Assembly: GCA_020632555.1 (NCBI GenBank)
Contig: JACKFI010000001.1
Coordinates: 133,152 to 197,151 of the forward strand
DNA: 64,000 nucleotides
Source of the DNA: Candidatus Omnitrophota bacterium
GTDB lineage: Bacteria > Omnitrophota > Gorgyraeia > Zapsychrales > JANLHA01
Direction: 5' to 3'
Every line of letters begins with the position of its first letter. Within the stretch, counting starts at the first letter, position 1. The notes under the pieces were generated by a model that saw only the letters and a program-made list of their open reading frames with translations, did no database searches and had not been told where the DNA came from. This document shows, piece by piece, positions 7,672-50,008 of this stretch. The position numbers and the translations under genes were made by a program.

Positions 7672-8268
7672 CTATGCTTGAATCCCACGCAGGAAAATTT
7701 CCCACAAAACTTCGGCTTTATTTAATGGAAATACAGTGTAATTCGTCAAAGAGTACAAAATAATACATGTTTGAATCAGTCCAAAAAAAGCCAAACTCGC
7801 GACTTCCAAATCCGTCTCTGGACGCACTTCTTTCTGTTGCCGAGCTTGCTCAAGAATACTTCTGATCTTAAGCTGATAGCGCCGCACAACATCAAGAACT
7901 TTCTTGGTCAATACCTTATCTTTAAAATGAATCGACTCAGAAGTGATCGCAAAAAAAATGCCTTTTTTACGCTCCGAAAGAAATAAATGCGCCTTCATAA
8001 TTTCTTTGAGCTGCTCGATCGGATCAACAGTTGAAGCAATGGATTGGGCCACGCCATCACTTAAAGTTCCTTCAAAATCTTCAATCAAAGCACCTAAAAT
8101 CGCTCGTTTATTATCAAAATGCCGATACAAAGCCGGCTCAGAAATCTTCATTTTTGAAGAGAGATTCTTCATCGTCAAAGCTTTGATGCCTTGATGAATA
8201 ATCAAATCCCGAGCGGTGTCGATGATTTCTCTCTTGCGAATATCTGTGGGTTTTTTTGTCATAGTCAT
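7672..8268 (-). CDS. TetR/AcrR family transcriptional regulator
   Basis: 198 aa. N-terminal HTH ALTMKNLSSKMKISEPALYRHFDNKRAIL followed by an all-helical ligand-domain-sized C-terminus. Confidence 0.8.
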   Translation of the reverse strand: MTMTKKPTDIRKREIIDTARDLIIHQGIKALTMKNLSSKMKISEPALYRHFDNKRAILGALIEDFEGTLSDGVAQSIASTVDPIEQLKEIMKAHLFLSERKKGIFFAITSESIHFKDKVLTKKVLDVVRRYQLKIRSILEQARQQKEVRPETDLEVASLAFFGLIQTCIILYSLTNYTVFPLNKAEVLWEIFLRGIQA

Positions 8269-8343: not shown

Positions 8344-9021
8344 TCACAGCACATTTTCTTTGCGACCTTTTAGGAATTTCTGCAAAACATAGACTCCTGC
8401 TAATAGGACAACAGCGACACCCACCTTCCAAATATGCTGCGGATTAGCAATAACGCTAATAAAAGAAGAGCCAAAATACACCAAAGCAAATGAGCCGGGC
8501 ATAATGCCAAAGAATGTGGCTAAAAAATAATCGCGAAACTTAACCTTGGTCAAACCTAAGCCAAGATTTTGAATATCCCAAGGCAAATTAGGAATCAACC
8601 GTATCAACAACACCGTTACAAACCCCCGTTTCTCAATAGCCACATCTATATTGCCCATTTTGCCTTTGAGCAATTTTTCAACCGCGTCCCGAGCCAGATA
8701 GCGCGCAATAAAAAATTCTCCCACCGCTGACAAATTCGCCGCAATCAATAAATACATAAAACCCTGCACGCCCCAAATCACACCAGCAGAAGCTGACAAT
8801 AGTGAAGCAGGAAAAAGAATCAACGGGCGAGCGATATAAAAAATGATATAAATCACCGGCCCCCAAATCCCGAAACCTTGGATGATTTCCCTGAATCTCT
8901 CCGGCGTCATCCCTGAAAAATCAATATGCAAAGCCCGCACCAAAATAAACATAGCCACCAGCAGATTCATCCCAATCAATAATTTCAACCACGGATTTTT
9001 CTTCATCAAGTCATCTCGCAA
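8344..9021 (-). CDS. TVP38/TMEM64 (DedA/SNARE-associated) family membrane protein
   Basis: 225 aa, multi-TM. Family-like stretch LIRLIPNLPWDIQNLGLGLTKVKFRDYFLATFFGIMPG. Lies 9 nt downstream of the flavoprotein gene. Confidence 0.7.
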   Translation of the reverse strand: MRDDLMKKNPWLKLLIGMNLLVAMFILVRALHIDFSGMTPERFREIIQGFGIWGPVIYIIFYIARPLILFPASLLSASAGVIWGVQGFMYLLIAANLSAVGEFFIARYLARDAVEKLLKGKMGNIDVAIEKRGFVTVLLIRLIPNLPWDIQNLGLGLTKVKFRDYFLATFFGIMPGSFALVYFGSSFISVIANPQHIWKVGVAVVLLAGVYVLQKFLKGRKENVL

Positions 9022-9030
9022 TTTCTCTAT

Positions 9031-10452
9031 TTATTTAAGCAAATAGGTTGCAATCTTAATCAAAGGACTTTGAGCGGCCAAATACGTCCCGCTGACCTTT
9101 TTATTAATCTGTGCCAGCGTCGGATAAACATGCATCGCTTTTTCAATTTTGCCAATGTCAACCTTGGCATGGATTGCCGCAACCCATTCATGAATCAATT
9201 CGCCGGCGTGAAGGCCAACAATTTGTGCTCCAATGATTTTCCGTTTGATATCAGTCAACAATTTGATAAATCCCTGCGTTGCCCCCTCAGCCAAAGCGCG
9301 ATCCAAATGAGCAAAGTCATATTTATAAACCTTGTATTGAATTCCCGCCTGCTGGGCCATGGTTTCATTTAAGCCAACACAAGCGACCTCTGGATCAGTA
9401 AACGTACACCACGGCACAGCAGTATAATCGGTTTTCAACAGCGGCCATGGCAATTTGGCATTTAAAGCGGCAATTCTCGCATCATATTCTGCGACATGCG
9501 TGAATAAAAACCCGCCTTTGCAATCTCCACAGGCATAAATATTTTTCGCCGTGGTTTGCAGGTTCCGATTCACTGTGATGCCCTGCGGTGCGTATTGAAC
9601 ACCCGCTTTTTCTAAATCCAATCCCGCAACATTGGGCTGCCGTCCCGTCGCAACCAGTAATCTTTGGGCTAATACCTTTTTCATATTGCCCTGATATTCC
9701 ATCGTGACTTCGATCCCCTCACCTGCTTTGCACACCTTTTGCGCTTTTGCTTGCACAAAGAACTCAATGCCTTCTTTAGCCAATAGCTCATGGACATAAG
9801 ACGAAACATCCGGGTCTTCCTTGGGCAGAATACAATCGGCAAACTCGATGACGGTGACTTTTGATCCCAAGCGCGAAAACGATTGCGCCATTTCCATACC
9901 AATGGGTCCCCCGCCCAAGACAATCAGAGATGCCGGCAACTTATCCAGCAAGAAAATTTCAACATTGGTGATAAAAGGAACATCTTTTAGTCCTTCAATG
10001 GGCAAGATCCGAGCCGATGAGCCCGTGGCTAAAATAATTTTTTTAGCAGTAATCTTTGCTCCGTTGCATTCAAGCGTGCGACTATCTAAAAATCTTGGCG
10101 AACCAAAGCGTGTTTCAATATTGTATTGCTTTTTAAATGCCTCGGGGGAATCATGCTTTTGTATGCCGGCGATAATGCCCTGAATGCGATCCCGGACCTT
10201 GGGAAAATCCACCGGTTCAATAGGAACTTTCGGCAAACCATACTGCTGGACCTGTTTCATCAAGTGATAAACGTTTGCACTTTTAATCAATGATTTCGAC
10301 GGTATACAACCATAATGCAAACAATCGCCGCCCAATTTTTCTTCTTTTTCAATCAACAATGTTTTGGAACCCAGCTGCGCTGACCAAATAGATGACGTTA
10401 ACCCTGCCGCCCCACCGCCGATCACCACCATATCAAAAGAAAAGTCTGCCAT
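9031..10452 (-). CDS. Class I pyridine nucleotide-disulfide oxidoreductase (dihydrolipoamide dehydrogenase / mercuric-reductase-like)
   Basis: 473 aa. VVIGGGAAG FAD fold, redox-active GGDCLHYGCIPSK disulfide, second GGGPIGMEMAQ NAD fold, dimerisation end HVYPTLAQ. No C-terminal Cys pair and no HMA domain. Confidence 0.85.
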   Translation of the reverse strand: MADFSFDMVVIGGGAAGLTSSIWSAQLGSKTLLIEKEEKLGGDCLHYGCIPSKSLIKSANVYHLMKQVQQYGLPKVPIEPVDFPKVRDRIQGIIAGIQKHDSPEAFKKQYNIETRFGSPRFLDSRTLECNGAKITAKKIILATGSSARILPIEGLKDVPFITNVEIFLLDKLPASLIVLGGGPIGMEMAQSFSRLGSKVTVIEFADCILPKEDPDVSSYVHELLAKEGIEFFVQAKAQKVCKAGEGIEVTMEYQGNMKKVLAQRLLVATGRQPNVAGLDLEKAGVQYAPQGITVNRNLQTTAKNIYACGDCKGGFLFTHVAEYDARIAALNAKLPWPLLKTDYTAVPWCTFTDPEVACVGLNETMAQQAGIQYKVYKYDFAHLDRALAEGATQGFIKLLTDIKRKIIGAQIVGLHAGELIHEWVAAIHAKVDIGKIEKAMHVYPTLAQINKKVSGTYLAAQSPLIKIATYLLK

Positions 10453-10462
10453 AAATCTCTCC

Positions 10463-11134
10463 TCAACGAATATTTTTGTAAAATTTTGCTAATCGCTGTG
10501 TGGACACACCTAAAATAAAACCCCAACTGAGTAAAATATTCATTAAGGTTGTTTTAACAATGCCTCGCTTTTCCCAACGCCGCGGCAAAACAGTGGCTGA
10601 TGAATCGAGAACAATGGTTTTACCTAACTGACGCAACTGTCGAGAGAAAAGCACATCTTCAAACAAAGGCACATTATCAAACCCACCGATTTGCTCAAAA
10701 ATATCTCGGCGGACAAAGATGGCTTGATCTCCATAAAAGATCTTAAATAATTCCGCACGCAAATTCCCAGACGATTCTATCCAACGATAAATCCATTTTC
10801 CAGAGTCAATCTTATGGGTAAAGCAACCGCCAACATAATTTAATAAAACTTGTTTAGCGATAATTCTCAATCCCTCCGCAGCGATGACACAGTCGGCATG
10901 TAAAAAAAGCAAAACATCTCCCTTTGCTGCACAAGCTCCCGCGTTCATTTGCACAGCTCTGCCGCGCGGGGATGTGATAACCTTCACTGAATACTGACCA
11001 ACAATATCCCTAGTCCTATCATTGCTATGACCGTCGACAACAATAACCTCAAGATCCGAAGCATAAGGCAGAGCCTTTAATGTTCTTTCAATCGCGGCCT
11101 CTTCGTTATAAACCGGAATAATAATAGAAATCAC
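10463..11134 (-). CDS. Family-2 glycosyltransferase, rSAM/ArsS-associated type (TIGR04283-like)
   Basis: GT-A strings IIIPVYNEE, VVDGHSNDRT, LLFLHADC. I moved the start to GTG 11134, which overlaps the upstream TGA stop as GTGA. The track ORF start at 11209 would overlap the upstream gene by 79 nt. Confidence 0.7.
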   Translation of the reverse strand: MISIIIPVYNEEAAIERTLKALPYASDLEVIVVDGHSNDRTRDIVGQYSVKVITSPRGRAVQMNAGACAAKGDVLLFLHADCVIAAEGLRIIAKQVLLNYVGGCFTHKIDSGKWIYRWIESSGNLRAELFKIFYGDQAIFVRRDIFEQIGGFDNVPLFEDVLFSRQLRQLGKTIVLDSSATVLPRRWEKRGIVKTTLMNILLSWGFILGVSTQRLAKFYKNIR

Positions 11135-12087
11135 TGCAAAGTTCCCTGACAACTGGATCCTGTTCCCGCGGTGCAACCAAAACAATGATTGGCGGTCAAC
11201 ACCTGCCAACTCTCCAAATCTTTTTTGGTAACATCAAAAACAGTAAGCTCATGATCCTTGCGCATTCCCATACCCAACATTTGATTAAAATCACAATCAA
11301 ACAGTTTCCCGTCCCAACCAATACTTAAGGTATTGCGACACATCAGTCCGTCTAAAGTGCCGGGATTAAAACTATTAACCAATAATTCACAATAACTTTC
11401 CAACTGATTAAATGTTTTTAAGAATTTGGCATAACGCGTAATGGGCATATTGGTGATGGTGTAAAGTTTATTAAAAACAATCCCGAAATCATCAGAAAGC
11501 CGCTGCTTGTAATCCTGTTGCAATTTCTCTTGTGCCGGTGGCAAATGCGCTCCGACGGGATTATAAACCAAATTCAACACAAGCCCACTATTGCTCTGCC
11601 CATACCCCAAGCGATTCAACTCTTGCAAAGCTTCAATAGATTTACCAAACACTCCCCTGCCTCGCTGTTGATCAACATTGTCTTGGGTATAACACGGCAA
11701 AGACGCAATCACCTCAACCTGATGCTGTGCCAGAAAATCTCCCAAGTCCTGCATGCCTTGTTCAAAGAGAATCGTTAAATTGCAACGGTCAATAATATGT
11801 ATTGCGCGCTGATGGGCTTGGTGCACCAAATAACGAAAGTGAGGATTCATTTCCGGCGCTCCACCCGTCAAATCCAAAGTCTTAGGATGAAATTCATCCA
11901 TTAACCGGACAATAGCCTGTGCTGTTCTCAAATCCATATTTTCTTTGACTTTGCTCGGCCCAGCCTCGACGTGACAATGAGAACAGGTCAAATTGCACAA
12001 CTTGCCTACATTGACTTGCAAAATGTCAATGCCCGTCTTGCGCAAATCATATTGATGTTGTGTTAATTTTTCTTTAAAGGATTTCAT
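11131..12087 (-). CDS. arsS: Radical SAM / Cys-rich-domain protein, ArsS-like (arsenosugar-type 5'-deoxyadenosyl transferase family)
   Basis: CNLTCSHC (CX3CX2C) radical-SAM cluster near the N-terminus. C-terminal Cys-rich tail NHCFGCTAGTGSSCQG matches the rSAM/selenodomain family as I recall it. Start taken at MKSFKEKL (12087). Confidence 0.75.
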   Translation of the reverse strand: MKSFKEKLTQHQYDLRKTGIDILQVNVGKLCNLTCSHCHVEAGPSKVKENMDLRTAQAIVRLMDEFHPKTLDLTGGAPEMNPHFRYLVHQAHQRAIHIIDRCNLTILFEQGMQDLGDFLAQHQVEVIASLPCYTQDNVDQQRGRGVFGKSIEALQELNRLGYGQSNSGLVLNLVYNPVGAHLPPAQEKLQQDYKQRLSDDFGIVFNKLYTITNMPITRYAKFLKTFNQLESYCELLVNSFNPGTLDGLMCRNTLSIGWDGKLFDCDFNQMLGMGMRKDHELTVFDVTKKDLESWQVLTANHCFGCTAGTGSSCQGTLQ

Positions 12088-12685
12088 GCATACTACCTGA
12101 TTTAATCTCATCTAAATCTTCTAAAACAGACACTGATTGATATTTTAATTTTAATTTTGTAATTATGTGATATGTCTGAGCTAAAACGTCGCTGGTGCTC
12201 CAACTGATATTCACGAACACTTGCGGATGATTCGCCGATAAACCAATCAAATAATAGCCGCCATCTTTAGCCGGCCCGATCACCACATCAATTTCATTAA
12301 GCAAGGCAAAACCTTGTTGAGCTATTGCAGTGGTCAAATGCAAAGTATCGCTGCCATAAGCGGCTACCCTTTTATACCCCTGAGCAAACGCCCAAGCAAA
12401 AGCCGACGTTAAACGCTGCCCCAAATCATCACCCTGCTGCGGAAGATACTCATCCGCACTGGGCAGCCACTGTTGAATTTTGTCATGATCCTCTGGCGGA
12501 TCAAAGAAAACGATCAAGTCTGTCTGCCCACAGGCCCGCAGAATAGAATAATTCTGCCCAGCCAATTGCCGATAAACTCGCGCGGCCGCTTGATCACCCA
12601 ATGTTTTGGCTAAGCGAGTCTTGACGTGTCCGGCCGTCGGATATTTCACAAAAAACAAAATCGCCTGTTGATTACGGCACGTCAT
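12074..12685 (-). CDS. DUF2064 / TIGR04282-like glycosyltransferase-fold protein (rSAM-associated transferase 1)
   Basis: 203 aa. N-terminal AILFFVKYPTAGHVKTRLA, later GDDLGQRL and DGGYYLIG, typical of DUF2064. Its 3' end overlaps the arsS-like gene. Confidence 0.7.
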   Translation of the reverse strand: MTCRNQQAILFFVKYPTAGHVKTRLAKTLGDQAAARVYRQLAGQNYSILRACGQTDLIVFFDPPEDHDKIQQWLPSADEYLPQQGDDLGQRLTSAFAWAFAQGYKRVAAYGSDTLHLTTAIAQQGFALLNEIDVVIGPAKDGGYYLIGLSANHPQVFVNISWSTSDVLAQTYHIITKLKLKYQSVSVLEDLDEIKSGSMHEIL

Positions 12686-12887
12686 TTAGTCTCCAATTTT
12701 AGGTAACTAAAAAAGCTCCACCGTCGCAGCGCCTCGCCTCAACCCCAGAACCAAAGATAAAATCAAAAAGATTTAACGCAATAATAAGAAATCCAACAAT
12801 TCAAACGGGAGTTTTTTGAACATAATTCACAAGCATTTGAATTTTTTCCAATTTGATTGTTATATTTTCCACACAAGCTCAAACCGC

Positions 12888-13481
12888 CTACGCGACGGGG
12901 ACAGAATTCTTAACACTGGGGCGCTGAGAAATTTTCTGATACCACTCATTGAGTTTGGAATGTTTTTCTGCGCGATACAAATCCGGTAAACGAAATTGCA
13001 AATAACCCAACGCGCACACAACGGCCACTGATCCCAAATGCCAAGATTCAAGATCAGCAAGGTGGCTATCAAAATATTCCAACACCCGGTCAATGGAAAC
13101 AATGTTAAGATCAATAAACTTCGCATTATAATCCTGAGGATGACGCATTTTTTCCATAACGACGCCAACCGTGATATCCATCAAACCGTCAGCTATTGCG
13201 GCCATATTAAGAACCTTCCAACGCTCAATTGAATCTTGCGGAATAAAGCGCGGCGCCGGCGTCAAAGCGTCAAGATACTCACAAATCAATGGATTATCAC
13301 AAAGACTCATGGTTTCATCGATAACCAAAGCAGGAACCTTACCGACAGGATTGGCTTTTAATAAAACCGAAGATTTATTGGCCAAATCTTCCTCGAACAG
13401 CTCTAATTTGATATTTTTTTCTTCAGCAATAATACGGGCCTTGCGAGCATAAGGCGAACGCTGGGTGTAATAAAGTTTCAT
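12888..13481 (-). CDS. Glutathione S-transferase family protein
   Basis: 197 aa. Thioredoxin-like N-domain MKLYYTQRSPYARKARI ... GKVPALV followed by a helical C-domain. Confidence 0.8.
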   Translation of the reverse strand: MKLYYTQRSPYARKARIIAEEKNIKLELFEEDLANKSSVLLKANPVGKVPALVIDETMSLCDNPLICEYLDALTPAPRFIPQDSIERWKVLNMAAIADGLMDITVGVVMEKMRHPQDYNAKFIDLNIVSIDRVLEYFDSHLADLESWHLGSVAVVCALGYLQFRLPDLYRAEKHSKLNEWYQKISQRPSVKNSVPVA

Positions 13482-19525: not shown

Positions 19526-20311
19526 TCATCGCCGCTTTGGCAAGGGGATAAAGAAACTTGTTGTCCGCATATATTCTTTAAAGGCCTCTCCTTTATTCTT
19601 CAAAGCTCGTGTTTCCATCAGCGGGATTCCTGTCACTTTCATTAAAAGAAAGAGCATCAATGCTGGTGCGATGAAACCCCACCATCCCTGAGGACTGCCT
19701 AAAGCGAAGATAAAATAGGCCACCCACATCAGCCATTCAAAAAAGAAATTAGGATGTCGTGAATAATTCCATAATCCTTGCTGACAAATCTTGCCTTTGT
19801 TGTTTGAATCCGCTTTAAATTTTCTTAATTGTTCATCCGCTACCGATTCGCCGATCAGACCAATCAACCATATCACCACCGCGATAAGTTCAATCACCTT
19901 AATGGTTGGATCAGTATTGAGAAACGCAATAAAAAACGGGACGGACAGCACAACATTAAAAATTGGCTGCAGTTGGAAGATCACAAAAAAATTCCGCCCA
20001 GCTTGGCGCCCCCAATCTTCTCTAAATTGAGCGTAACGACTGTCCTCGCGTCCATCATGAATGATTCGCCGCAGCAAATGCGAGGACAAACGCAAGGTCC
20101 AAATGAAAATAGGCAGCAAAATCAACCACTTCCTTAATAGAAACCCATCTAAGTTGATCGCATACCAACCAACTAAAACAGACATGCCAATACTCCAACC
20201 CACATCAGCTGTTGACGCATCTTTGGTGCGCATTTGTATGCCCCACAACACCGTCTGCATCAAGACAAGCATCAGGTACCCTTTAAAAATGATGTCAAAG
20301 TTTTCGCTCAT
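19526..20311 (-). CDS. DUF1295 / steroid-5-alpha-reductase-like membrane protein
   Basis: 261 aa, multi-TM. C-terminal GLWNYSRHPNFFFEWLMW motif of the DUF1295/ICMT-like superfamily. 4-nt overlap with the upstream gene. Confidence 0.7.
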   Translation of the reverse strand: MSENFDIIFKGYLMLVLMQTVLWGIQMRTKDASTADVGWSIGMSVLVGWYAINLDGFLLRKWLILLPIFIWTLRLSSHLLRRIIHDGREDSRYAQFREDWGRQAGRNFFVIFQLQPIFNVVLSVPFFIAFLNTDPTIKVIELIAVVIWLIGLIGESVADEQLRKFKADSNNKGKICQQGLWNYSRHPNFFFEWLMWVAYFIFALGSPQGWWGFIAPALMLFLLMKVTGIPLMETRALKNKGEAFKEYMRTTSFFIPLPKRR

Positions 20312-20754
20312 TGTGGTTTATGATGGTTCGCCATTTTGTTTTTAACAAAACGCACCATCCCTCCTAAAATTGGTATACCTTCGTAGACAAACTCACCCAG
20401 ATCAAAATAATCCCGGTGATAAATAGCTTTGCCTTCTTTTCCTCCGAATTTAATAACCGATACGCCATCAACGATAACCGGTTGACCTTTATTAAAGTTT
20501 TTGGCTATCAATGTCATCTTCCAGACCAAACTGCAACTGTTGCCATCTCTGATCTGATCAGGAATATCCCAATGGATTGATTGAACATTGTTATACATGT
20601 TCCGATAATAATCCTTCATTTGCTGGCGATTGTTGACGGCGACTAAAGGATCAAGAAATTTGATATTCTCGTCGTAAAATTGATCAACCAGATGCATGGT
20701 ATCCTTGTTGAGTGCTTCAAAAAATTCTTTGGGTGTTAAGATTTCAGCAGCCAT
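20308..20754 (-). CDS. SnoaL/NTF2-like fold protein
   Basis: 148 aa. Size and pattern (FYDENIKFLDPL ... SLVWKMTL ... GVSVIKF) fit the nuclear transport factor 2 / SnoaL-like family. Confidence 0.5.
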   Translation of the reverse strand: MAAEILTPKEFFEALNKDTMHLVDQFYDENIKFLDPLVAVNNRQQMKDYYRNMYNNVQSIHWDIPDQIRDGNSCSLVWKMTLIAKNFNKGQPVIVDGVSVIKFGGKEGKAIYHRDYFDLGEFVYEGIPILGGMVRFVKNKMANHHKPQ

Positions 20755-20777
20755 AGATAACTCTCCTTATCAGCTGA

Positions 20778-21773
20778 TTAAATAAGATTGTTGACCTTTA
20801 GTAAACCACACAACTGTTTTAATGTAAATCGCTTATTAACTGCCAAATACGTCTGCTGTTTATTCGCTTTGTAATGATCTTTATGCTGACCAATGGTCTG
20901 ATAATTGTAAAATAAACTTGTCCGATAAATCAGTTGAAATATCTTTTCTGCGAATTGTGAATATGGGAATGATTGATTGTTCCTTTGATATAAGGGCGCC
21001 AATCCTAATGATATCTGTTCGAATCCTTCTTGTTTAAATTGAAACAAAGCATTGAGTATTAAAAAATCCTGGGATCCTAAAGGCGCTTTATCAGATACCC
21101 GAAGATGTTGAAGGGTGTAACTTAACACCTGACCTGTGTTCATTTTAGAAAAAATTGGATCAAAAGTGCAAAATCCAATGATATCTTTGTTTTTGACCAT
21201 ATAGAAATATCTAACCCCTGGCTCTTTGGTCCCATTAAAGGGCCGAGCCATAAACCGCAATTCTTTAGAACCCGGTTTTACTTTGAGCCATTGATCATTG
21301 ATGTCCCAGACTTTTTGAGCGTCAGCGTTATACTCAAAAACAAAATACTTTTGATTATTCAATTTTGAAAGATAACTCTTTAAACATTTTCTTTTTTTCC
21401 AAGACACCTCAAAATCTTGAGTATTGATCACATGCTCAACACCAAACCCATTGATTGTATAATTTAAACATTTTAATACTGTTGCATAGTCATAAGAAAT
21501 CTGACAATAAACAGCATTTTTGTGCTTTTGCTCAAACAAAACGGTTGCTTTTAACATTTCACTTTTGGGTGTTATCGGATCAGAAAGCACAAAATCAACA
21601 CCCCAAACAGATGTATAAGGAATAAAGCCTTGAAACGACGGATGACGAAATTCTCGAATGTCTTTCTGAAGAGCTGAATAAGACATGCTATTGGTACCGT
21701 ATTTCAAGATATTTTCAATCTTTATATGATTGTCAAAATTTACCAATGATTTATTTAAGGTTTGTCCGCTCAT
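20778..21773 (-). CDS. DUF2156-like protein (aminoacyl-phosphatidylglycerol synthase C-terminal-domain family)
   Basis: 331 aa. Pattern GFIPYTSVWGVDFVLSDPI ... GFGVEHVINTQDFEVSWKKRKCLKSYLSK resembles the MprF/LPG-synthase C-terminal tandem-GNAT domain. Called from memory of the family. Confidence 0.45.
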   Translation of the reverse strand: MSGQTLNKSLVNFDNHIKIENILKYGTNSMSYSALQKDIREFRHPSFQGFIPYTSVWGVDFVLSDPITPKSEMLKATVLFEQKHKNAVYCQISYDYATVLKCLNYTINGFGVEHVINTQDFEVSWKKRKCLKSYLSKLNNQKYFVFEYNADAQKVWDINDQWLKVKPGSKELRFMARPFNGTKEPGVRYFYMVKNKDIIGFCTFDPIFSKMNTGQVLSYTLQHLRVSDKAPLGSQDFLILNALFQFKQEGFEQISLGLAPLYQRNNQSFPYSQFAEKIFQLIYRTSLFYNYQTIGQHKDHYKANKQQTYLAVNKRFTLKQLCGLLKVNNLI

Positions 21774-21945
21774 GATAAATTCCTCTCTGGTCTAGGCATA
21801 ATTGGGCCAAGGTCCCCCTACCAAAAAATAATTGGGTCCCATCTTTTCCTTATTGATTGTTCTCTTTGAAGGCTCTTGCTCAACAAAACAATCTTTGCAA
21901 TTTATACCGTGCAACTTTGCATAAATTGTTTGCGCTAATCTTTTT

Positions 21946-23214
21946 TTATCCAATAGTGTTTGTGCACACATGATTCATCTCCCTTTTTAGTTTATGTGTT
22001 CTTCCGTATTTCTTATGGGCTTGAGTAAAGTGTCCGGCCGCAATGGCAGCCGCAATTGAGATTTCTCCTGCCAGAACAGTGGCGGCACAAATTTCAGCAA
22101 ACTTTTTTGATTTATCTTTTCCATAACAATCCATCAGTTCTAAACATTCTTTCTGAGTGGGAAGATGCGTTCCTCCACCCACAGTGCCCACAATCAAATT
22201 GGGCAATGAAATGGAGATATAAAGATCCCCTTGTTTGGTTAACTCCGCCCTGGAGGTCCCTGTTGAGGACTCAGCAACACAAGCAGCATCTTGACCACAA
22301 GCAATAAAAAGAGCTGTCAAAGCATTGGAGAAATGCGCATTGACCCCAATAGAACCACTGTGAATGCCGCCGACCATAGCCATATTGCTATACTCAACAA
22401 ATTCTTCAGGCGTTGTATGCAAAAACTTTTTGACTAGCAATTTATTGATAGTAACTTCGGCCAACATATTTTTTCCTCTACCTGCATATTGAGATAGCCT
22501 AGTGGCCTTTTTATCTCCAGAAAGATTGGCATCGATATACCATTTATTGGGTTTAATGGGACTGAACTTTTCAATATAGTGACAAATCGCGTCGGTGGCG
22601 ATAGTCACCATATTCTGCCCAGCCGCATCCCCGCTAACAAACTTAAAGTTAATCCAAACATATTTACCGTCTATCTTAGAATCAAAATCTTCAAGGTGAC
22701 CATAACGGGTTGTTGTTGTAACGATATCTCTTAAAATAGTAAAATGCTCTGATACCCAAGCCACAAATTGCGCGGACTCAAAAATACTATTAAAAATAAA
22801 TCCAGGCGAGCGCGTTATCGTTTCGGAAATACACAAAACATTCGCTCCACCACTGAGTGTTATAATCTTTGCTCCTCTGTTATAGGAGGCCACCAAAGCC
22901 CCTTCAGTGGTCGCTAATGGGACGTGCCATGAGCCACCCGCATAAGCCCCATTGACTCTCAAGGGACCAATCAATCCAATTGGAATCTGAGCCATACCAT
23001 AAAAGTTCTCTATATTCCCATCAAAAATACTGGGATCTTGAATCTTCTTGATTCCAGCCAAATAAGGCCCAGCTGGCGGTTGCTGATTTTTCATAGGTTT
23101 TACCCCAATCCCGTGATTCTTAATGTTATTTTTTATTTGACCTAAAACTTCCGAATCAATGATTGTATTTAACCTCGTTTTCATTTGACTTTTTGATATA
23201 TACATTTCGCTCAC
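21946..23214 (-). CDS. Hydroxymethylglutaryl-CoA reductase
   Basis: 422 aa. ENFYGMAQIPIGLIGPLRVNG, PLATTEGALVAS, SGDAAGQNM, GTVGGGTHLPTQ. Its start abuts the stop of the upstream gene (23214/23215). Confidence 0.9.
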   Translation of the reverse strand: MSEMYISKSQMKTRLNTIIDSEVLGQIKNNIKNHGIGVKPMKNQQPPAGPYLAGIKKIQDPSIFDGNIENFYGMAQIPIGLIGPLRVNGAYAGGSWHVPLATTEGALVASYNRGAKIITLSGGANVLCISETITRSPGFIFNSIFESAQFVAWVSEHFTILRDIVTTTTRYGHLEDFDSKIDGKYVWINFKFVSGDAAGQNMVTIATDAICHYIEKFSPIKPNKWYIDANLSGDKKATRLSQYAGRGKNMLAEVTINKLLVKKFLHTTPEEFVEYSNMAMVGGIHSGSIGVNAHFSNALTALFIACGQDAACVAESSTGTSRAELTKQGDLYISISLPNLIVGTVGGGTHLPTQKECLELMDCYGKDKSKKFAEICAATVLAGEISIAAAIAAGHFTQAHKKYGRTHKLKREMNHVCTNTIG

Positions 23215-25556: not shown

Positions 25557-26690
25557 TTAAGTGTCCTTCAATGCGTAACTTGTGCTGCGCCCACCCGCGG
25601 TTTCTTTTACTAAAATACCCTTTTCAACAAGATCGAGAATATCGCGCAACGCCGTGTCCTGTGAACACTGGGTGATCTTCGCCCATTTAGAAGAAGTGAG
25701 CTTGCCTTCAAAACCATCAAACAACTTATTGATGATCATCTTCTGCCTCTCGTTAAGGGATTGGGCAGGATGAGATTCCCAAAAACGCGCTTTCTTAAAT
25801 ACACCCGACAAAGTATTTTCAGTTGCATCCAACGCCCGACCCAAACAGCTCAGGAACCACACAAGCCATGGCGTAATATCAATGCCGTCTTTTGTGGCAC
25901 GGTTACTTTTCTGTGTTTTTTCAAGAATATCATAATAGGCATTCCGTTCCTGCCGGATCTGATTCGACATGCTGTAAAAACGCTCCCGGCTGCCGTCGGC
26001 ACGTGCCAGTTGCATATCGGCAATAGCCCGGGCAATTCTTCCGTTACCATCATCAAAAGGATGAAGTGTCACAAACCACAAATGCCCAATACCAGCTTTG
26101 AGCACAGGATCTAAATCCTTTGTGAGCGAAATCGAAGTGTTAAACCATTTCAGAAATTCCTTCATTTCACTTTTAAGACGGTTGGCCTGCGGTGCTTTAT
26201 AATGAACCTTCTCCCGGCCGATAGGACCAGACACAACTCTCATGGGACCATGCTTATCGTCGCGCCAATCAGCCACTGTAATTTTATGCATTCCGCTTCT
26301 ACCGGTTGGGAATAAACTGGCATGCCAGCCAAACATTCGATCCTGCGTAAGGGGCTTGTCAAATTTCTGTGTGGCATCGAGCATCATTTCCACCACTCCA
26401 TCCACATGACGATCAGAAGGCACAAGTCCACCGATGTCCATGCCCAGCCTGCGTGCAATGGATGACCGCACTTTGGCAGGGTCAAGAATCTCACCTTCAA
26501 TTTCACTACTTTTTAAAACATCAAGGGTGAGAGTCTGCAGGATTGCCTCGGAACGCAAAGAAAAACCCAATGCTTCCATTCTTCCAATCAGTCGCCCTTG
26601 GCGATTGCGGACAGTCCCCAAGATAGACGCGACCTTTTCGTGATCCCATGTCAATTTAGGCCAAATGGTTAATTCATGAATGTATTTCAT
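25557..26690 (-). CDS. Fic/DOC family protein (AMPylase-type) with N-terminal DUF4172-like region and C-terminal winged helix
   Basis: 377 aa. Fido motif HPFDDGNGRIARA. N-terminal WPKLTWDHEKV. C-terminal ..ALRDILDLVEKGILVK. Confidence 0.9.
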   Translation of the reverse strand: MKYIHELTIWPKLTWDHEKVASILGTVRNRQGRLIGRMEALGFSLRSEAILQTLTLDVLKSSEIEGEILDPAKVRSSIARRLGMDIGGLVPSDRHVDGVVEMMLDATQKFDKPLTQDRMFGWHASLFPTGRSGMHKITVADWRDDKHGPMRVVSGPIGREKVHYKAPQANRLKSEMKEFLKWFNTSISLTKDLDPVLKAGIGHLWFVTLHPFDDGNGRIARAIADMQLARADGSRERFYSMSNQIRQERNAYYDILEKTQKSNRATKDGIDITPWLVWFLSCLGRALDATENTLSGVFKKARFWESHPAQSLNERQKMIINKLFDGFEGKLTSSKWAKITQCSQDTALRDILDLVEKGILVKETAGGRSTSYALKDT

Positions 26691-26721
26691 GGCAAATTCC
26701 TGCGGTGAATAGTCTCATTAT

Positions 26722-26765
26722 TCTACGCATACTATGCGGAGAATATACCATGTTTTCTCCGCATA
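26722..26765. promoter_or_regulatory. Candidate operator upstream of fic
   Basis: Palindrome TCTACGCATA-c-TATGCGGAGA (26722-26742) plus a third half-site TCTCCGCATA (26756-26765), 30-75 nt upstream of the fic ATG. Confidence 0.35.
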
Positions 26766-26877
26766 CACAAGAGAGATTTAAATCTATATTGCTCCCTACT
26801 AAAAGAAAGCGTCATTGGATATAACGGCTATGTCCAATCATATCCAATTATTGAATCTTTCCATGAGATTTGAAACG

Positions 26878-26895
26878 ATGTGCCGGATTCCTGCC
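26878..26895 (-). promoter_or_regulatory. sigma54-promoter-like motif, degenerate copy 4, fused to an 18-nt palindrome
   Basis: Minus strand reads GTAGGCAGGAATCCGGCACATCG (3 differences from the 18-nt core). About 190 nt upstream of fic. Overlaps CCTGCCTACCGGCAGGCA (26890-26907). Confidence 0.25.
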
Positions 26896-26918
26896 TACCG
26901 GCAGGCAGGTGTGCCAAG

Positions 26919-27866
26919 TTATAATCGATCTGAATATTGTGAGATTGTACTTAAAATTTCATCAAACGATATTTGCCCCTGATAATACAATGTTGCAGTT
27001 TTTAGGCACTCCTTCTTAAATTGATCTCTTATCTTCGTATCTTTCAGCAAAAAAGCCTCCTGCTTTGCAATAGGAAACTTTTGATCTGCGACGGGAAATC
27101 TCTTCTTCTTATGCTCGTTGTATTCTGAAGTCCCGATAAACTTCTGAACCGTATCGTTTTGCAAAAGGCAAGCAACATCGTAATAATGCCGGATAAAATT
27201 AGCAGGCATCTTTCCGGACTCTTGCAGTTTCCGAAACTTTGTTGCGATTGTTTGCAATTTCTCAACAAACGTATAACCCAGATGATAGCACAAAACACCA
27301 CCAGCTCTATTATCCTTAACCTTGAGTCCATTCTGCAATGCAAAATCAAGCGCCCAAGAGCTAATATCCATCGGGCTGTTGGGCGTCACCTCATCAAACC
27401 CAACTTCGAGCAATACACCCTCTTTTATGCCGCCGGCAACAGAGAAAGCACTTTTGTAAAAAAGCCGTATTCCACCGCTAAAGAATTTTTCATTATCAAA
27501 TTCCGTGTCACGAATAATTCTTTGTATCCCATCAATATTAATTTTCTTCGCCAACCAGTCATAGTATTTCTTACGGCTTGCACAATGATCTGGTTTTATA
27601 TGGTTTGGACCTGTCTTGACTTCCATGCCGGCAGGCGGTTCGATACGAATATCAATGTCCTCAGAAAATCGATGAATAATGCCATACCCTTTTGAGAGCG
27701 ACGTACCTCCTTTGAGCTCGAAGGTAAATCCCCCTTGTTGCAAACCATATAAAACATGCATGATCCAATAATCTTTTTCAACCAGACTACGCTCTATCTT
27801 TTTTTCATGCTCTACAGCTCGCAAGAGTTCTTTAAATTCAGCGTGGTTATGTAAATAATCAGACAT
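26919..27866 (-). CDS. AbiEii/AbiGii nucleotidyltransferase toxin (type IV TA, DUF1814)
   Basis: 315 aa. LKGGTSLSKGYGIIHRFSEDIDI nucleotidyltransferase motif. 8-nt overlap with the upstream antitoxin-like gene. Confidence 0.85.
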   Translation of the reverse strand: MSDYLHNHAEFKELLRAVEHEKKIERSLVEKDYWIMHVLYGLQQGGFTFELKGGTSLSKGYGIIHRFSEDIDIRIEPPAGMEVKTGPNHIKPDHCASRKKYYDWLAKKINIDGIQRIIRDTEFDNEKFFSGGIRLFYKSAFSVAGGIKEGVLLEVGFDEVTPNSPMDISSWALDFALQNGLKVKDNRAGGVLCYHLGYTFVEKLQTIATKFRKLQESGKMPANFIRHYYDVACLLQNDTVQKFIGTSEYNEHKKKRFPVADQKFPIAKQEAFLLKDTKIRDQFKKECLKTATLYYQGQISFDEILSTISQYSDRL

Positions 27867-28452
27867 GTGCTAAGTTTCCCTCTAACATCCATTGATTAAA
27901 TAAAGTTTTTGTTCTTTCTCCTGCATAAACATTGACCGCGCGCTTCATCTGAGATTCTGGTTCTTTCAGCACTTTTTCCTTAACACTTCGCAAAACACTT
28001 TCCCGATCTTCCGCTAACTCATTTAAATTGTTCAGTAAATCAACCAGTAGAAATTCTTCGGACAATTCTCTGGGGAATTTATGCTTTAATCGAAAATCAA
28101 ACTCCTTTCCACCAAGAACGAATTGACCATGCCGTTTATGATTATAAACAAAGCGCGTATTGTACAACTGCGTAGTTCCCACTCCTAAAGAATTGTAAAG
28201 GTTAGGCGAGGTTAAAAGAAAATCATCGCTTTTTAAGAAGGCCCGTACCAATTTTTCGTCTTCCGGTGGCACAGAGCCAAACGAGGCTTTTGCAGGATAA
28301 TAGTACAATCCCTGTGACATTTTTTGCAAGGTCCCCTCATCAACCAGTTGCTTTAAATGCCGATCAACCGCGGTTGACCATTGCTCCAGATCAACCCTGC
28401 GATAAACCTGTCCCGGTTTTAAATGCCTTTTAAGTTCGCTAAGCGCGTCCAC
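27859..28452 (-). CDS. AbiEi-family antitoxin-like protein (wHTH)
   Basis: 197 aa. N-terminal wHTH-like HLKQLVDEGTLQKMSQGLYYYP. Positioned directly upstream of AbiEii and overlapping it. Confidence 0.65.
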   Translation of the reverse strand: MDALSELKRHLKPGQVYRRVDLEQWSTAVDRHLKQLVDEGTLQKMSQGLYYYPAKASFGSVPPEDEKLVRAFLKSDDFLLTSPNLYNSLGVGTTQLYNTRFVYNHKRHGQFVLGGKEFDFRLKHKFPRELSEEFLLVDLLNNLNELAEDRESVLRSVKEKVLKEPESQMKRAVNVYAGERTKTLFNQWMLEGNLAHV

Positions 28453-30546: not shown

Positions 30547-31560
30547 TCATATTGAAACGTGGCATTGCCCATTGCCAAGATCAACAAAATTAATTTTAAC
30601 ATCCATGAACTTCTCAATAATCTCGGCATTGGTAAGGCTGTGCAGCGTCAGGGCCGTAGTTTTAAATTCTCCACCTTTGGCCAAAGCAAACGGGATCAAA
30701 AGCTGATCAGCCAAATACGTCCCCACCGGAGCATCGATTTGTAAATATTTCTTTACTTGTTCAATGGCTTCATGCGCTACTGCTTCCGCGCTTTTACGCA
30801 ATTCTCCGAAACCCACAAACATTTCCCTGATATTTTCACTATCAACCTCAACCGTAAAAATATTTCCCGGACCTTGAGAATCCATGGCTTGAAAAATCTC
30901 ACTTTGATCATCTTCCAGAGAAAAATGTTTTTTAGCGACCGCGATTTCTCTGACAGCAACATTGCCAGGGATTTGGGCAAAGAGTGATCTTGCCTTTATG
31001 CCTTTAAGTTTGCCGCGCTCTAACAAAAATATGGGTTTTAATTTCTTTATAGGCACAATTTTAGCTTCGATCTTTCCGCCGCCGGCCGGGTAAAAACCGT
31101 GGCGATGCAAAGTCACTTCTAAATCCACACCCATTTGTTTGAGAATCGGCGCAAAAACTATTTTTAAAAAATCCACCGGGGGTGCGAAAGGATTATGCGT
31201 TCCTCCTTCGATCACAATTATGGATGGTGAGTCCGCGATCATCAAAGCCGGTAAAATGGTTTGCAAAACAAGAGTCGCGCTACCCGCCGTCCCAACTGAA
31301 AAATGGTATTCCCCTGCGGTGACTTCTCCCGGATAGAAAGTCAGCTTTTGCGAGCCGATAACATTCCCATCGACCTTTGCATCTCCAATCTTCGTAGCTG
31401 CTTCGACAGCCGTTAAATGCTGGCGTAAAAGCCCCGGCTTACTACGCTTAGCGCGGATATTCTCAATCGTAAACGGCTCGCCCGTTACTAAGGACAACCC
31501 GAGAGCTGTCCTTAGTATTTGGCCCCCGCCTTCACCGATTGAACCGTCGATTTTAATCAT
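30547..31560 (-). CDS. rtcA: RNA 3'-terminal phosphate cyclase RtcA
   Basis: 337 aa. MIKIDGSIGEGGGQILRTALGLSLVTGEPFTIENIRAKRSKPGLLRQHL, HRHGFYPAGGG, YLADQLLIPFALA. ATGA overlap with the upstream SPFH gene. Confidence 0.92.
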   Translation of the reverse strand: MIKIDGSIGEGGGQILRTALGLSLVTGEPFTIENIRAKRSKPGLLRQHLTAVEAATKIGDAKVDGNVIGSQKLTFYPGEVTAGEYHFSVGTAGSATLVLQTILPALMIADSPSIIVIEGGTHNPFAPPVDFLKIVFAPILKQMGVDLEVTLHRHGFYPAGGGKIEAKIVPIKKLKPIFLLERGKLKGIKARSLFAQIPGNVAVREIAVAKKHFSLEDDQSEIFQAMDSQGPGNIFTVEVDSENIREMFVGFGELRKSAEAVAHEAIEQVKKYLQIDAPVGTYLADQLLIPFALAKGGEFKTTALTLHSLTNAEIIEKFMDVKINFVDLGNGQCHVSI

Positions 31561-32306
31561 TTGACCTCTTTGGTTCTCACCGGAACGACTTGACCCGATA
31601 CTCCTAAGACAATCGTACTTCCCGGTGATTGTAAAGCTCGCAATTGCAATAACGCAGGATTGTCTTCCAACACTTTAGAAACATTGGCCAAATTGCGCAA
31701 AGACGCGGTTTCTCCGCGGGCACGTTCCAATGCCGCCAACCCTTCTTTTTGCGCCTCAACAACCTTAGCAAAGATTTTCTTTAATTCACCCGGAAACATA
31801 ACGTCCTTAACGCCGATGAGCGTAATTTTTAAACCGATTTCCTTCGCTTTGGCAACCGTCGCTTCCATCAACTTTTGATTAATCGTTGCTCGCTGTGCCA
31901 AAACCTCATCGATCGCTAAAGAGCCAATGATGTCACGAACTGCCAATTGTACCACCGCGTATAAAGCCTCGGTGTAACTAGCGATCTTATTAACGGCGAT
32001 GTTGGCATCTTCGATCTCATATTGCGCCGTAATGCTGACCTTTAAGGACACATTGTCCGAACTTAAGACTTCCTGCCCCGGGATCGTGATGACTCGAGGA
32101 CGAACATCGATCTTAACGATGATCGTATTCTGAGAAAACTTAAAATAACGACCCGGTTCCAAAATTCCGACAAATTTTCCCTTGCGATATTTTAAACCCT
32201 TCTCATATTCAAGAATAGTGACAAAATATTTTGCACTAAAAACCGCAATGACGACCCAACCGATAAAGCCGAGCACCGCCATGCTTACTAATGTTGATAA
32301 TGTCAT
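31557..32306 (-). CDS. SPFH/band-7 (stomatin/slipin-like) membrane protein
   Basis: 249 aa. N-terminal TM helix. SPFH core VDVRPRVITIPGQEVLSSDNVSLKVSITAQYEI, then a coiled AKVVEAQKEGLAALERARGETA segment. Confidence 0.85.
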   Translation of the reverse strand: MTLSTLVSMAVLGFIGWVVIAVFSAKYFVTILEYEKGLKYRKGKFVGILEPGRYFKFSQNTIIVKIDVRPRVITIPGQEVLSSDNVSLKVSITAQYEIEDANIAVNKIASYTEALYAVVQLAVRDIIGSLAIDEVLAQRATINQKLMEATVAKAKEIGLKITLIGVKDVMFPGELKKIFAKVVEAQKEGLAALERARGETASLRNLANVSKVLEDNPALLQLRALQSPGSTIVLGVSGQVVPVRTKEVK

Positions 32307-32602
32307 TTCTTTCTCCTTTTGTTTTTAAAAGTTCTGTCTTAAAAAAATTGTAGAATCGCAGTGGAGGTTGTTGACCTGCAAGACGGCTTTTCTACGAGCA
32401 ACTTTCTTAAGACAGAACGTGGGGATTTGAACCCCTCGGATTACTCCTTGACCAGGGCGAGCGTTTATCTGCAAAATGATATGGCCGATGCCATGTCATC
32501 GCACTGGATTCGCTCGCATATTTTTTTATCCCAATTTTTGCTAAAGGATTTTGCTTTTGGTAAATTGGGATTACGCAAATTTTTTCTATCGAAAATCTGC
32601 CT
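32307..32602 (-). ncRNA. Structured non-coding spacer between rtcB and the SPFH gene, with a tRNA T-arm-like motif (candidate ncRNA or tRNA remnant)
   Basis: No ORF. On the minus strand: 10-bp hairpin ATCCCAATTT/AAATTGGGAT (32528-32571); 7-bp stem GCGAGCG/CGCTCGC (32457-32517); exact T-arm GGGGTTCAAATCCCC (rc of 32421-32435); 12-bp stem GTTCTGTCTTAA/TTAAGACAGAAC (32331-32342 with 32407-32418) followed by TTTT. Confidence 0.35.
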
Positions 32603-34120: not shown

Positions 34121-34163
34121 TTGTTTTTCCCTTATATTGCCCCTTTCCTTTATCGTTGCTTAA

Positions 34164-34192
34164 AGCATACCCTATCCAAAGCCAAATGTCAA
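34164..34192 (-). promoter_or_regulatory. sigma70-type promoter candidate for rtcB
   Basis: Minus strand reads TTGACA (rc of 34187-34192), a 17-nt spacer, then TATGCT (rc of 34164-34169), about 45 nt upstream of the rtcB ATG. Confidence 0.4.
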
Positions 34193-34243
34193 ATTTATTT
34201 TTATTTTCTTGTATAAATGTTTATCCTGTGATATATTTATACC

Positions 34244-37346: not shown

Positions 37347-38471
37347 ATGCATCTTAGAAAACTAACCAAAAGTTTTATTGAAGAAACTCTCGACGAAGAA
37401 ATGACCCAATATCAACAACGAGAAAAACATCAGCGGTTAAAGAAAATGATCGATTACCGAAACGGACATTATCAACGCAACCTCGATACGACCATCGGCC
37501 CTCTTGATAATATTGCCGTTCCGCGTTCACGAAGCGGACTATTTAAACCTACGGTTTTTAAGCGTTACCAAAGACGCCAAGAAGCTGTTAACACCGTCAT
37601 CTGCAATGCCTTCCTGCGCGGCATATCCACCCGTGAAGTCGCTGGCGCTTTAAAACCAATCCTTGACACCAACATCTCCGCTTCCGCCGTCTCACGAATA
37701 ACAAAATCTTTAAATGCCCAAGTTAAAGCATTCCATCAACGTCAACTGCTCGACGAATATCAGTTTTTATTCCTAGACGGTATTGCTATCTCAGTCAAAG
37801 GAGCGCTTAAAGCCAAGAAAATTCTTGTCCTAACTGCTTATGGCATTACGATCTTCGGTAAAAAAGAGCTCATCGCCTTTAGAATCTCTAACAGCGAGTC
37901 AAATCAAGCCTGCGAAGGATTTTTAAATGATCTATTTAAACGCGGCCTGCAAGGCAAAAACCTTAAATTGATTATCACCGACGGGTCCAAAGGCTTTATT
38001 AACGCCGTCGACCTCGTTTACCCTCACGTCAAACATCAGCGCTGCTGGGTTCATAAACTTCGTAATTGCACTAAACATCTTAAGAAATGCGATATTGATG
38101 CATTTAAAAATGATGCCCGCAAGATTTACAATGCCTCGACTCATCGAGATGCTGTCGCGGCTTTTAAGAGTTTACGCCAACATTGGGTCAAAGATTATCC
38201 GCAAGTTGTCAAACTCATCGAACAGGATTTAGATAGTCTTTTGGCTTTTTTAGAAATTCCAATCAAGGAACAATACCGCGAATTTATCCGTCGTCGAATT
38301 CGTACAACCAACATCATCGAGCGTTCATTCCGGGAAATCAGACGCCGCACCAGACCCATGGGATGTTTTGCAAATATTGATAGCGTCAGCAGGATTATTT
38401 ATGCGATATTTAATCGCTTAAACACCAAATGGCAGGAGAAACCTTTAACCCAATTTACACAATTTATTTGA
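37347..38471 (+). mobile_element. IS256-family (mutator-type) transposase gene; IS ends not delimited
   Basis: 374 aa. FLFLDGIAISVK, IITDGSKGFINAVDLVYPHVKHQRCWVHKLRN, TTNIIERSFREIRRR (DDE region). N-terminus somewhat short for the family. I could not identify convincing terminal inverted repeats. Confidence 0.8.
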
Positions 38472-38730: not shown

Positions 38731-38804
<74 letters not shown>

Positions 38805-47996: not shown

Positions 47997-48011
47997 ATTT
48001 TTATCCCTGTC

Positions 48012-50006: not shown

Positions 50007-50008
50007 AT

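Follow-up and report, generated by a model that had tools for sequence, protein, structure and literature searches.

An arsM-less ArsS gene cluster with flavoprotein reductase and DedA partners in an uncultured Omnitrophota bacterium

The radical S-adenosylmethionine (SAM) enzyme ArsS of Synechocystis sp. PCC 6803 uses a [4Fe-4S] cluster and SAM to transfer a 5'-deoxyadenosyl radical to a trivalent dimethylated arsenical, forming DDMAA, which is 5'-deoxy-5'-dimethylarsinoyl-adenosine (bioRxiv 10.64898/2026.04.29.721666; PMC8552651). Removal of the adenine and derivatisation of the ribose follow later (Cheng et al. 2021, cited in PMC12159101; Xue et al. 2019, cited in PMC8552651). Here we analyze an ArsS-centred locus in a 64-kb stretch of DNA (the window) from a 197,279-bp contig of an uncultured Candidatus Omnitrophota metagenome-assembled genome (MAG). 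Five minus-strand genes encode a DUF2064 protein, ArsS, a family 2 glycosyltransferase (GT2), a pyridine-nucleotide-disulfide oxidoreductase (PNDR; a class-I flavoprotein disulfide reductase) and a TVP38/TMEM64 membrane protein of the DedA superfamily (hereafter DedA). The locus belongs to a known cluster type, of which it is a variant without arsM, and is already annotated, as the GenBank (PGAP) and IMG names of the first three proteins are those of arsenosugar-biosynthesis proteins. With moderate confidence, we read the five genes as an arsM-less (type B) arsenosugar-type cluster centred on ArsS and operating by the mechanism proposed below.

An earlier note on this DNA, made from the sequence alone, had assigned the first three proteins to TIGR04282, TIGR04167 and TIGR04283 and proposed hidden Markov model (HMM) searches as a check. 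When these were run, all three proteins scored above the curated cut-offs. ArsS matched TIGR04167 with 449.5 bits (cut-off 300, E = 5.3e-135) over profile positions 2-303 of 303, and consists of PF04055 and a C-terminal PF12345/DUF3641 domain (E = 7e-55). Its radical SAM CxxxCxxC motif (C31/C35/C38) is invariant in our alignment, as are the cysteines of the CxxC-x7-C motif (C302/C305/C313) in the Cys-rich tail (...HCFGCTAGTGSSCQGTLQ), which is present as the earlier note had quoted it. C313 occupies the position taken by selenocysteine in some family members, and the window ArsS is the Cys form. The Sec position of the family is given as 'GxxU', and selenocysteine-containing members exist (PMC13188914). 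Across the 79 columns that are conserved in at least 95% of 94 other ArsS sequences, the window ArsS has 0 substitutions, and nothing in its sequence suggests a changed substrate. The DUF2064 protein reached 191 bits with TIGR04282 (cut-off 134) and contains PF09837. A weak CofC HMM match (E = 1.2e-5) and a match to PDB 3CGX, a 'putative nucleotide-diphospho-sugar transferase' (E = 4.8e-29), point to a predicted CofC/MobA-like nucleotide-diphospho-sugar transferase fold. The GT2 contains PF00535 and scored 237.2 bits with TIGR04283 (cut-off 182), measured on the longer 248-aa open reading frame (ORF) 10463-11209.

The five genes (8344-12685) form one operon. Together with an upstream glutathione S-transferase (GST)-like gene, they make up six ORFs that were present on the minus strand at the coordinates the earlier note had given, and the six proteins are exact matches to GenBank MCB9756922-MCB9756927. 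In the direction of transcription, the order is GST-like, DUF2064, ArsS, GT2, PNDR and DedA, followed by a TetR-family regulator and the GlgE and TreS-Mak alpha-glucan genes. The tight packing described earlier was also confirmed: DUF2064 and ArsS overlap by 14 nt and ArsS and GT2 by 4 nt (the GT2 start codon lies over the ArsS stop codon), while 10 nt separate GT2 from PNDR and 24 nt separate PNDR from DedA. The GST-like gene lies 202 nt upstream of the operon and the TetR gene 75 nt downstream, preceded by a good -35/-10-like site (8319-8291). Promoter-like and terminator-like matches across the region were no more frequent than in shuffled sequence, and an Rfam search detected no family in the region, only three tRNAs elsewhere in the window.

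To place the operon in context, one genome per GTDB species was scanned, which gave at least 599 confirmed ArsS relatives. Neighbourhoods of up to 10 kb on each side were compared for the best 80 of these, and a family was counted when it lay within 6 kb of ArsS. ArsM-like methyltransferases were found in 30/80 loci, TIGR04283-like GT2 proteins in 22/80, DUF2064 in 17/80, PNDR of the window's type in 16/80 and the PHO4 phosphate-transporter family in 13/80. TIGR04169 AhpD-like proteins (9/80), OlsE-like fatty-acid hydroxylases (7/80), DedA as a separate gene (7/80), MTAP (5/80) and PstB (5/80) were also present. The best matches of the ArsM-like neighbours are arsenite methyltransferase models, and these proteins keep four cysteine-containing motifs (CC, YGCG, SNCV and GC-GA), which correspond to the ArsM cysteines. 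MTAP or nucleoside-phosphorylase genes occur in the clusters that we label L029, L031, L062, L080 and L089. At the family level, the genomic context of ArsS is arsenic and phosphate, and its recurrent partner set exceeds the curated trio. The 150 nearest other neighbours contained no Pfam family that exceeded three loci and no recurring family of selenium metabolism. A selenium link for the cluster was rejected on this ground.

The hydroxylase genes stand beside ArsS or GT2 in L002 (11688-12470), L031, L037, L051, L052, L061 and, from the metagenome set, L139; their recurrence suggests that the cluster product is lipid-linked. Two further kinds of protein were seen in these comparisons. Three gammaproteobacterial ArsS loci (L050 4010-5914, L054 7478-9322 and L063 7453-9312) encode, two genes upstream of ArsS, a fusion of about 615 aa between a PP2C phosphatase and an FGE-sulfatase/EgtB/SenA-like domain, a C-S/C-Se bond-forming fold. 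Four ArsM-like methyltransferases of 431-509 aa (P0207, P0208, P0225 and P0229) also contain PF12345/DUF3641, the C-terminal half of ArsS. These are either real fusions of ArsM with an ArsS tail or gene calls merged on short contigs; if true fusions, they would tie ArsM and ArsS together physically.

The earlier note had also attached the reductase and the DedA protein to the trio, and this grouping is borne out. The order DUF2064-ArsS-GT2-PNDR-DedA is kept in Omnitrophota relatives, and a PNDR with a separate or fused DedA was found near ArsS in 16 of the 80 species genomes, mostly directly adjacent. These genomes span about ten lineages (Planctomycetota, Acidobacteriota, Binatia, Verrucomicrobiota, Gamma- and Betaproteobacteria, Rhodospirillales, Oligoflexia, Myxococcota and Deltaproteobacteria). 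Gene order varies among them, with ArsS-PNDR in L006, L010 and L038, PNDR-ArsS in L011, L030 and L043, ArsS-DedA-PNDR in L018, L065 and L074, and DedA-PNDR-ArsS in L031. One polypeptide of 710-767 aa combines DedA and PNDR in L011, L029, L030, L038, L042 and L077, and the module shares one cluster with an ArsM-like gene in L031, L042, L074, L077, L087 and L089. The window DedA itself matched the PF09335 VTT domain with 91.8 bits (cut-off 33.9, E = 5.9e-26); its placement in the COG0398 (TVP38/TMEM64) branch follows the PGAP name 'TVP38/TMEM64 family protein' alone. Lipid flippases are found within the DedA superfamily (PMC10193950), and phospholipid scramblase activity is reported for eukaryotic homologues (PMC10127716).

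The association was also assayed in reverse, by searching the PNDR subfamily in JGI metagenomes and counting 34 loci of at least 10 kb. DedA was adjacent or fused in 24/34, and ArsS, an ArsM-like gene or DUF2064 lay within 8 kb in 11/34. An alternative is that the pair is functionally independent, a general membrane or redox-homeostasis module that merely sits next to ArsS, with the trio acting as described. COG0398 DedA proteins in general are fused most often to PF07992/PF02852, a combination reported with no pathway assigned and tied to aerobic metabolism, not to arsenic (PMC10127716), and the remaining 23/34 PNDR-anchored loci contain none of the three markers within 8 kb. We nevertheless consider independence unlikely, if worth serious attention: against it stand the 16/80 genomes in about ten lineages, compared with a chance expectation for one flavoprotein subfamily of roughly 1% (our own estimate, not computed), the 11/34 loci with an arsenosugar-cluster marker, and the position of the pair directly after GT2 in the window. 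The PNDR-DedA pair is strongly, not exclusively, tied to ArsS clusters, and the reductase and DedA are genuine, recurrent partners of the ArsS pathway. Our literature search returned no paper connecting arsenosugar genes with DedA, TVP38 or these reductases. In Synechocystis sp. PCC 6803, arsM is slr0303 (PMC4010505) and slr0305 is one of three TVP38/DedA homologues (PMC3836016). The two locus tags are two apart, which, from the tag numbers alone, hints at a DedA link in the organism of the characterised ArsS as well.

The PNDR contains PF07992, PF00070 and PF02852 and reached no cut-off among the NCBIfam models, the best being NF004991 (461 versus 620). Alignment to lipoamide dehydrogenase (1DXL) and the mercuric reductase MerA (5X1Y) placed its CxxxxC redox pair at C44-LHYG-C49, Tyr443 where lipoamide dehydrogenase and glutathione reductase have their catalytic His, and Gln448 in place of the Glu. 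The corresponding motif reads H-V-Y-P-T-L-A-Q, compared to H-A-H-P-T-x-x-E in lipoamide dehydrogenase and Y-L-T in MerA. Of 20 aligned PNDR sequences, 19 share GGDCL-x-x-GC and H-x-Y-P-T-x-x-(E/D/Q); the exception is L027, whose PNDR lies about 4 kb from ArsS. The change of the dyad Glu to Gln (Q448) is found in the Omnitrophota sequences. The matches to MerA and lipoamide dehydrogenase are full-length (E = 1e-72 to 1e-73), with FAD and NAD(P)H domains and a CxxxxC pair in common, and MerA also has Tyr where disulfide reductases have the catalytic His. MerA was rejected as an identity (TIGR02053, 376 versus 454 bits), as the PNDR has neither the NmerA domain nor the C-terminal Cys pair: its tail (...SPLIKIATYLLK) is free of cysteine and no N-terminal extension is present. 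Dihydrolipoyl dehydrogenase was rejected as well (TIGR01350, 396 versus 408.8 bits; His-Glu dyad not intact), and the score was also below the glutathione reductase cut-off.

Two architectures were distinguished in Omnitrophota. Type A contains the window's genes plus arsM. Type B has the order DUF2064-ArsS-GT2-PNDR-DedA and lacks both a methyltransferase and PHO4 within 10 kb. The type-A ArsS proteins are 79% (L088), 76% (L089) and 69% (L087) identical to that of the window. L089 begins with a nucleoside phosphorylase, DUF547, an unannotated gene, GT2, DUF2064, ArsM-like, PHO4 and ArsS, and continues with CMD (an AhpD-type domain), YHS, GT2, PNDR, DedA and AhpC. The order in L088 is a 706-aa GT2-domain protein, DUF2064, ArsM-like, PHO4 and ArsS, and in L087 it is ArsM-like, PHO4, ArsS, PNDR, DedA, GT2 and thioredoxin. 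Type B comprises the window, L082 (ArsS 92% identical), L083 (78%), L085 and L086 (77%) and L090, whose PNDR falls in the same 90%-identity cluster as the window's; the arsM-less arrangement is thus present in at least five related contigs. In a neighbour-joining tree, the type-B ArsS sequences group together inside those of type A with a bootstrap of 39/100, a value at which one loss of arsM is indistinguishable from two.

Compared to L089, the window is missing ArsM-like and PHO4 between DUF2064 and ArsS, and CMD and YHS between ArsS and GT2, as would be expected if the cluster were a functionless remnant decaying after deletion of arsM-PHO4. This is extremely unlikely, because none of the five ORFs is disrupted, contigs with an ArsS only 77-92% identical preserve the arrangement, and the selection analysis contradicts it. 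For the five genes, the ratio of nonsynonymous to synonymous substitution rates (dN/dS) between the window and L082, L083 and L085 was 0.06-0.20, at dS up to about 2 (DUF2064, 0.12-0.17; GT2, 0.10-0.20; PNDR, 0.06-0.09; DedA, 0.07-0.08). All five genes are under purifying selection. Given this and the intact conserved columns of ArsS, the arsM-less operon is a maintained, functional variant, not a relic.

The earlier observation that ArsM, ArsR and ArsC are missing from the window stood up. Tblastn of the 64 kb with ArsM-like, PHO4, fatty-acid hydroxylase, TIGR04169 AhpD-like, PstB and MTAP queries from related loci gave nothing, and neither ArsR nor ArsC was detected in it by motif scans and approximate reference queries. 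A wider search with an Omnitrophota ArsM-like query was evaluated on its best 120 matches, all at least 60% identical. None of these lies on the 1.14-Mb, 164-kb and 141-kb contigs that carry type-B or near-identical proteins, the first being an IMG contig of 1,136,155 bp with members of the 90%-identity clusters of the window's proteins. While 14 type-A ArsS contigs could be paired with an ArsM-like protein among the best 120, none of the type-B contigs (197,279, 163,999, 141,110 and 34,356 bp) or the 1,136,155-bp contig could, and none of ten further NCBI ArsM-like proteins falls in the accession range of the window MAG (MCB975xxxx). On matches of at least 60% identity, this suggests that type-B genomes are without this ArsM.

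The lack of a local ArsM bears on the substrate, which the earlier note had left open. That caution is weakened by the ArsM-like gene in 30/80 ArsS loci and by ArsM-like and PHO4 genes in the same cluster in L087, L089 and other phyla; the idea of a non-arsenic substrate finds little support. In its most explicit form, the arsM-less ArsS would adenosylate a compound other than a methylated arsenical, such as inorganic As(III) or a form of selenium, antimony or tellurium, and the reductase and DedA would import and reduce that substrate. Flavoprotein disulfide reductases are said, in the title of one paper (PMC4960239), to reduce tellurite, and neither arsM nor PHO4 was found in the window, nor, among the best 120 ArsM-like matches, arsM on the long contigs of relatives. 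Selenocysteine-containing family members (PMC13188914) and a DedA protein linked to selenite resistance (Ledgham 2005, as cited in PMC10127716) point in the same direction. We judge this quite improbable, as the window ArsS differs from ArsM-linked ArsS at 0/79 conserved columns and is placed among the Omnitrophota ArsS with ArsM-like and PHO4 genes nearby. The six clusters listed above that combine PNDR-DedA with an ArsM-like gene (L031, L042, L074, L077, L087 and L089) and the lack of a recurring selenium-metabolism family among the 150 nearest other neighbours also speak against it.

For the arsenosugar-type cluster that we favour, the following mechanism is proposed. By analogy with the Synechocystis enzyme, the window ArsS would transfer the 5'-deoxyadenosyl group to a methylated arsenical. 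As arsM and PHO4 are missing here, either an unlinked ArsM or the environment must supply this arsenical. Adenine would be taken off by an MTAP-type phosphorylase to give arseno-ribose-1-phosphate; such a gene is present in several related clusters and not in this one. The DUF2064 protein may then activate the arseno-ribose phosphate to a nucleotide-activated intermediate, and the arseno-ribosyl unit could be passed on by the GT2 to an acceptor, either glycerol or a lipid head group. GT2 enzymes are inverting and natural arsenosugars are beta-configured, so that an inverting enzyme would give the beta-riboside. The PNDR-DedA pair is envisaged as a conserved accessory module that acts directly with ArsS at the membrane. 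Within it, the PNDR would most likely use NAD(P)H to keep the arsenical reduced (DMAs(V) to DMAs(III)) or, alternatively, to reduce the Cys/Sec tail of ArsS; the first role is proposed because DMAs(III) is prone to oxidation in air. DedA would move the substrate or a lipid-linked product across the membrane, and the fatty-acid hydroxylases in seven loci together with DedA suggest a lipid-linked product.

Several points weigh against this reading. Just one ArsS, a cyanobacterial one, has been characterised, and in the literature searched we found no experiment for TIGR04282 or TIGR04283 and no mention of DUF2064. The roles of the PNDR and DedA, like every step beyond ArsS, are inference only, and the PNDR subfamily occurs mostly away from ArsS, ArsM and DUF2064 in the anchored set (the 23/34 loci above). 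The ArsM-like neighbours score below the NCBIfam cut-offs. No arsM, PHO4, MTAP, ArsR or ArsC was found in the 64 kb, and none of the best 120 ArsM-like proteins lies on the window's 197,279-bp contig, which leaves the source of the arsenical unexplained. A bolder version of the proposal takes the H-x-Y-P-T flavoprotein and DedA as a module dedicated to organoarsenicals, whose NAD(P)H-driven reduction and transport would feed trivalent methylarsenicals to ArsS. We regard it as speculative and, on present evidence, rather unlikely. We know of no bacterial enzyme established as a dedicated reductase of pentavalent methylarsenicals. If the bolder version were true, arsM-less Omnitrophota would scavenge methylated arsenic made by the community and convert it to arsenosugars or arsenolipids.

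The genes flanking the operon (Table 1) did not show a comparable association. The earlier note had counted the GST as a component of the system, and this was not upheld. GST was found in 0/80 of the GTDB ArsS loci, and although it is present in L082, it is absent upstream of the cluster in L083, L085 and L090, the last being the locus whose PNDR clusters with the window's at 90% identity. Its best equivalog model is PRK10357, with 106 bits against a cut-off of 181. The GST is an incidental neighbour. TetR was likewise found in 0/80 loci and was rejected as a component; its association is with the alpha-glucan genes GlgE/TreS downstream, since both L082 and L090 have TetR beside GlgE and two opposite-strand genes between TetR and DedA.

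Table 1. Genes of the ArsS operon and its immediate neighbours in the window. Starts are those of the deposited proteins and differ slightly from the longest ORFs for ArsS, GT2 and DedA.
Feature	Position	Strand	Length	Accession	Remarks
DUF2064/TIGR04282 protein	12074..12685	-	203 aa	MCB9756926.1 (exact match)	First operon gene
ArsS radical SAM enzyme	11131..12087	-	318 aa	MCB9756925.1	
GT2 glycosyltransferase, TIGR04283	10463..11134	-	223 aa	MCB9756924.1	
PNDR	9031..10452	-	473 aa		PF07992/PF00070/PF02852
TVP38/TMEM64 (DedA superfamily, VTT domain) integral membrane protein	8344..9006	-	220 aa	MCB9756922.1	Last operon gene
GST-like protein	12888..13481	-	197 aa		GST_N domains; upstream neighbour, judged outside the system
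TetR-family regulator	7672..8268	-			PF00440; judged outside the system

Elsewhere in the window, additional features were recorded. Three tandem minus-strand paralogues of 673, 664 and 644 aa (45975-51943) have signal-peptide-like N-termini and glycine-rich repeats. The first ends in a C-terminal Peptidase_S74 'chaperone of endosialidase' domain (E = 5e-11), such as phage tail fibres typically carry; inspection by eye showed no further phage genes nearby. A 1224-aa minus-strand protein (59377-63051) consists mostly of tandem repeats of about 45 residues (...AKAAIDNYF..L.A.QNPA.AK.VM......VLNP.DK..V.NYY...), with a weak FG-GAP match in its C-terminal part and no confident Pfam assignment. At 25557-28452 (minus strand), the gene for a DUF4172-Fic/DOC protein precedes that for an AbiEii nucleotidyltransferase toxin, whose small upstream partner matches DUF6088 weakly. 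This is likely a toxin-antitoxin or defence islet, and close homologues of the AbiEii pair also occur in L089. An IS256/Mutator-family transposase (37347-38471, plus strand; PF00872, E = 1e-89) adjoins a tRNA gene (38731-38804, minus strand). A lipid-related run on the minus strand (19526-23214) encodes a DUF1295/steroid-reductase-like membrane protein, the C-terminal domain only of a phosphatidylglycerol lysyltransferase, and HMG-CoA reductase. From the translations, a putative RNA-repair set was recognised by eye at 30547-35842, comprising an RtcA-like cyclase, a Band-7 protein, an RtcB-like ligase and, transcribed divergently, a sigma-54 activator that resembles RtcR.

ArsS is the sole biochemically characterised enzyme among those that the cluster encodes, and we know of no enzymes assigned to adenine removal, ribosyl transfer or lipid attachment. 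The locus and its relatives provide a compact, conserved gene set in which DUF2064, GT2, PNDR and DedA are candidates for such unassigned arsenosugar or arsenolipid steps; ArsM, PHO4, MTAP, the AhpD-like protein and the fatty-acid hydroxylase are its variable partners. In addition, the enigmatic DedA-flavoprotein fusions are placed for the first time in the context of a specific pathway. Ecologically, the arsM-less form raises the question of whether some uncultured bacteria may make organoarsenicals from the methylarsenic of their neighbours. The main value of the locus lies in this comparative result, all of it inferred from genomes.

The cluster overlaps in part with several described systems. 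The ArsL/ArsM arsinothricin pathway resembles it in using a radical SAM enzyme for SAM-dependent C-As bond formation (bioRxiv 10.64898/2026.04.29.721666), but ArsL belongs to another family and transfers a 3-amino-3-carboxypropyl group, and the window protein is not ArsL-like. With the COG0398 DedA-PNDR fusions of Todor et al. 2023 (PMC10127716), the window shares the domain pair PF09335 and PF07992/PF02852, here in two adjacent genes; that paper presents the fusion as a statistic, with no link to ArsS or arsenic. The 'rSAM/selenodomain-associated' set of NCBIfam/TIGRFAMs is matched by adjacent TIGR04167, TIGR04282 and TIGR04283 genes, all above cut-off. The TIGR04169 AhpD-like peroxidase of that set, found in 9/80 loci, is absent from the window, and the PNDR and DedA are outside the curated set. 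The characterised system, ArsM (slr0303) and ArsS of Synechocystis sp. PCC 6803, differs in its organism, a cyanobacterium rather than an uncultured Omnitrophota, and in having arsM, which was not detected in the 64 kb; related Omnitrophota carry ArsM-like genes, but these are not of the cyanobacterial type (NF038099, 104-133 bits versus 400). The ArsS proteins of the two systems belong to the same family, TIGR04167, and share the radical SAM motif, the DUF3641 domain and the Cys-rich tail.

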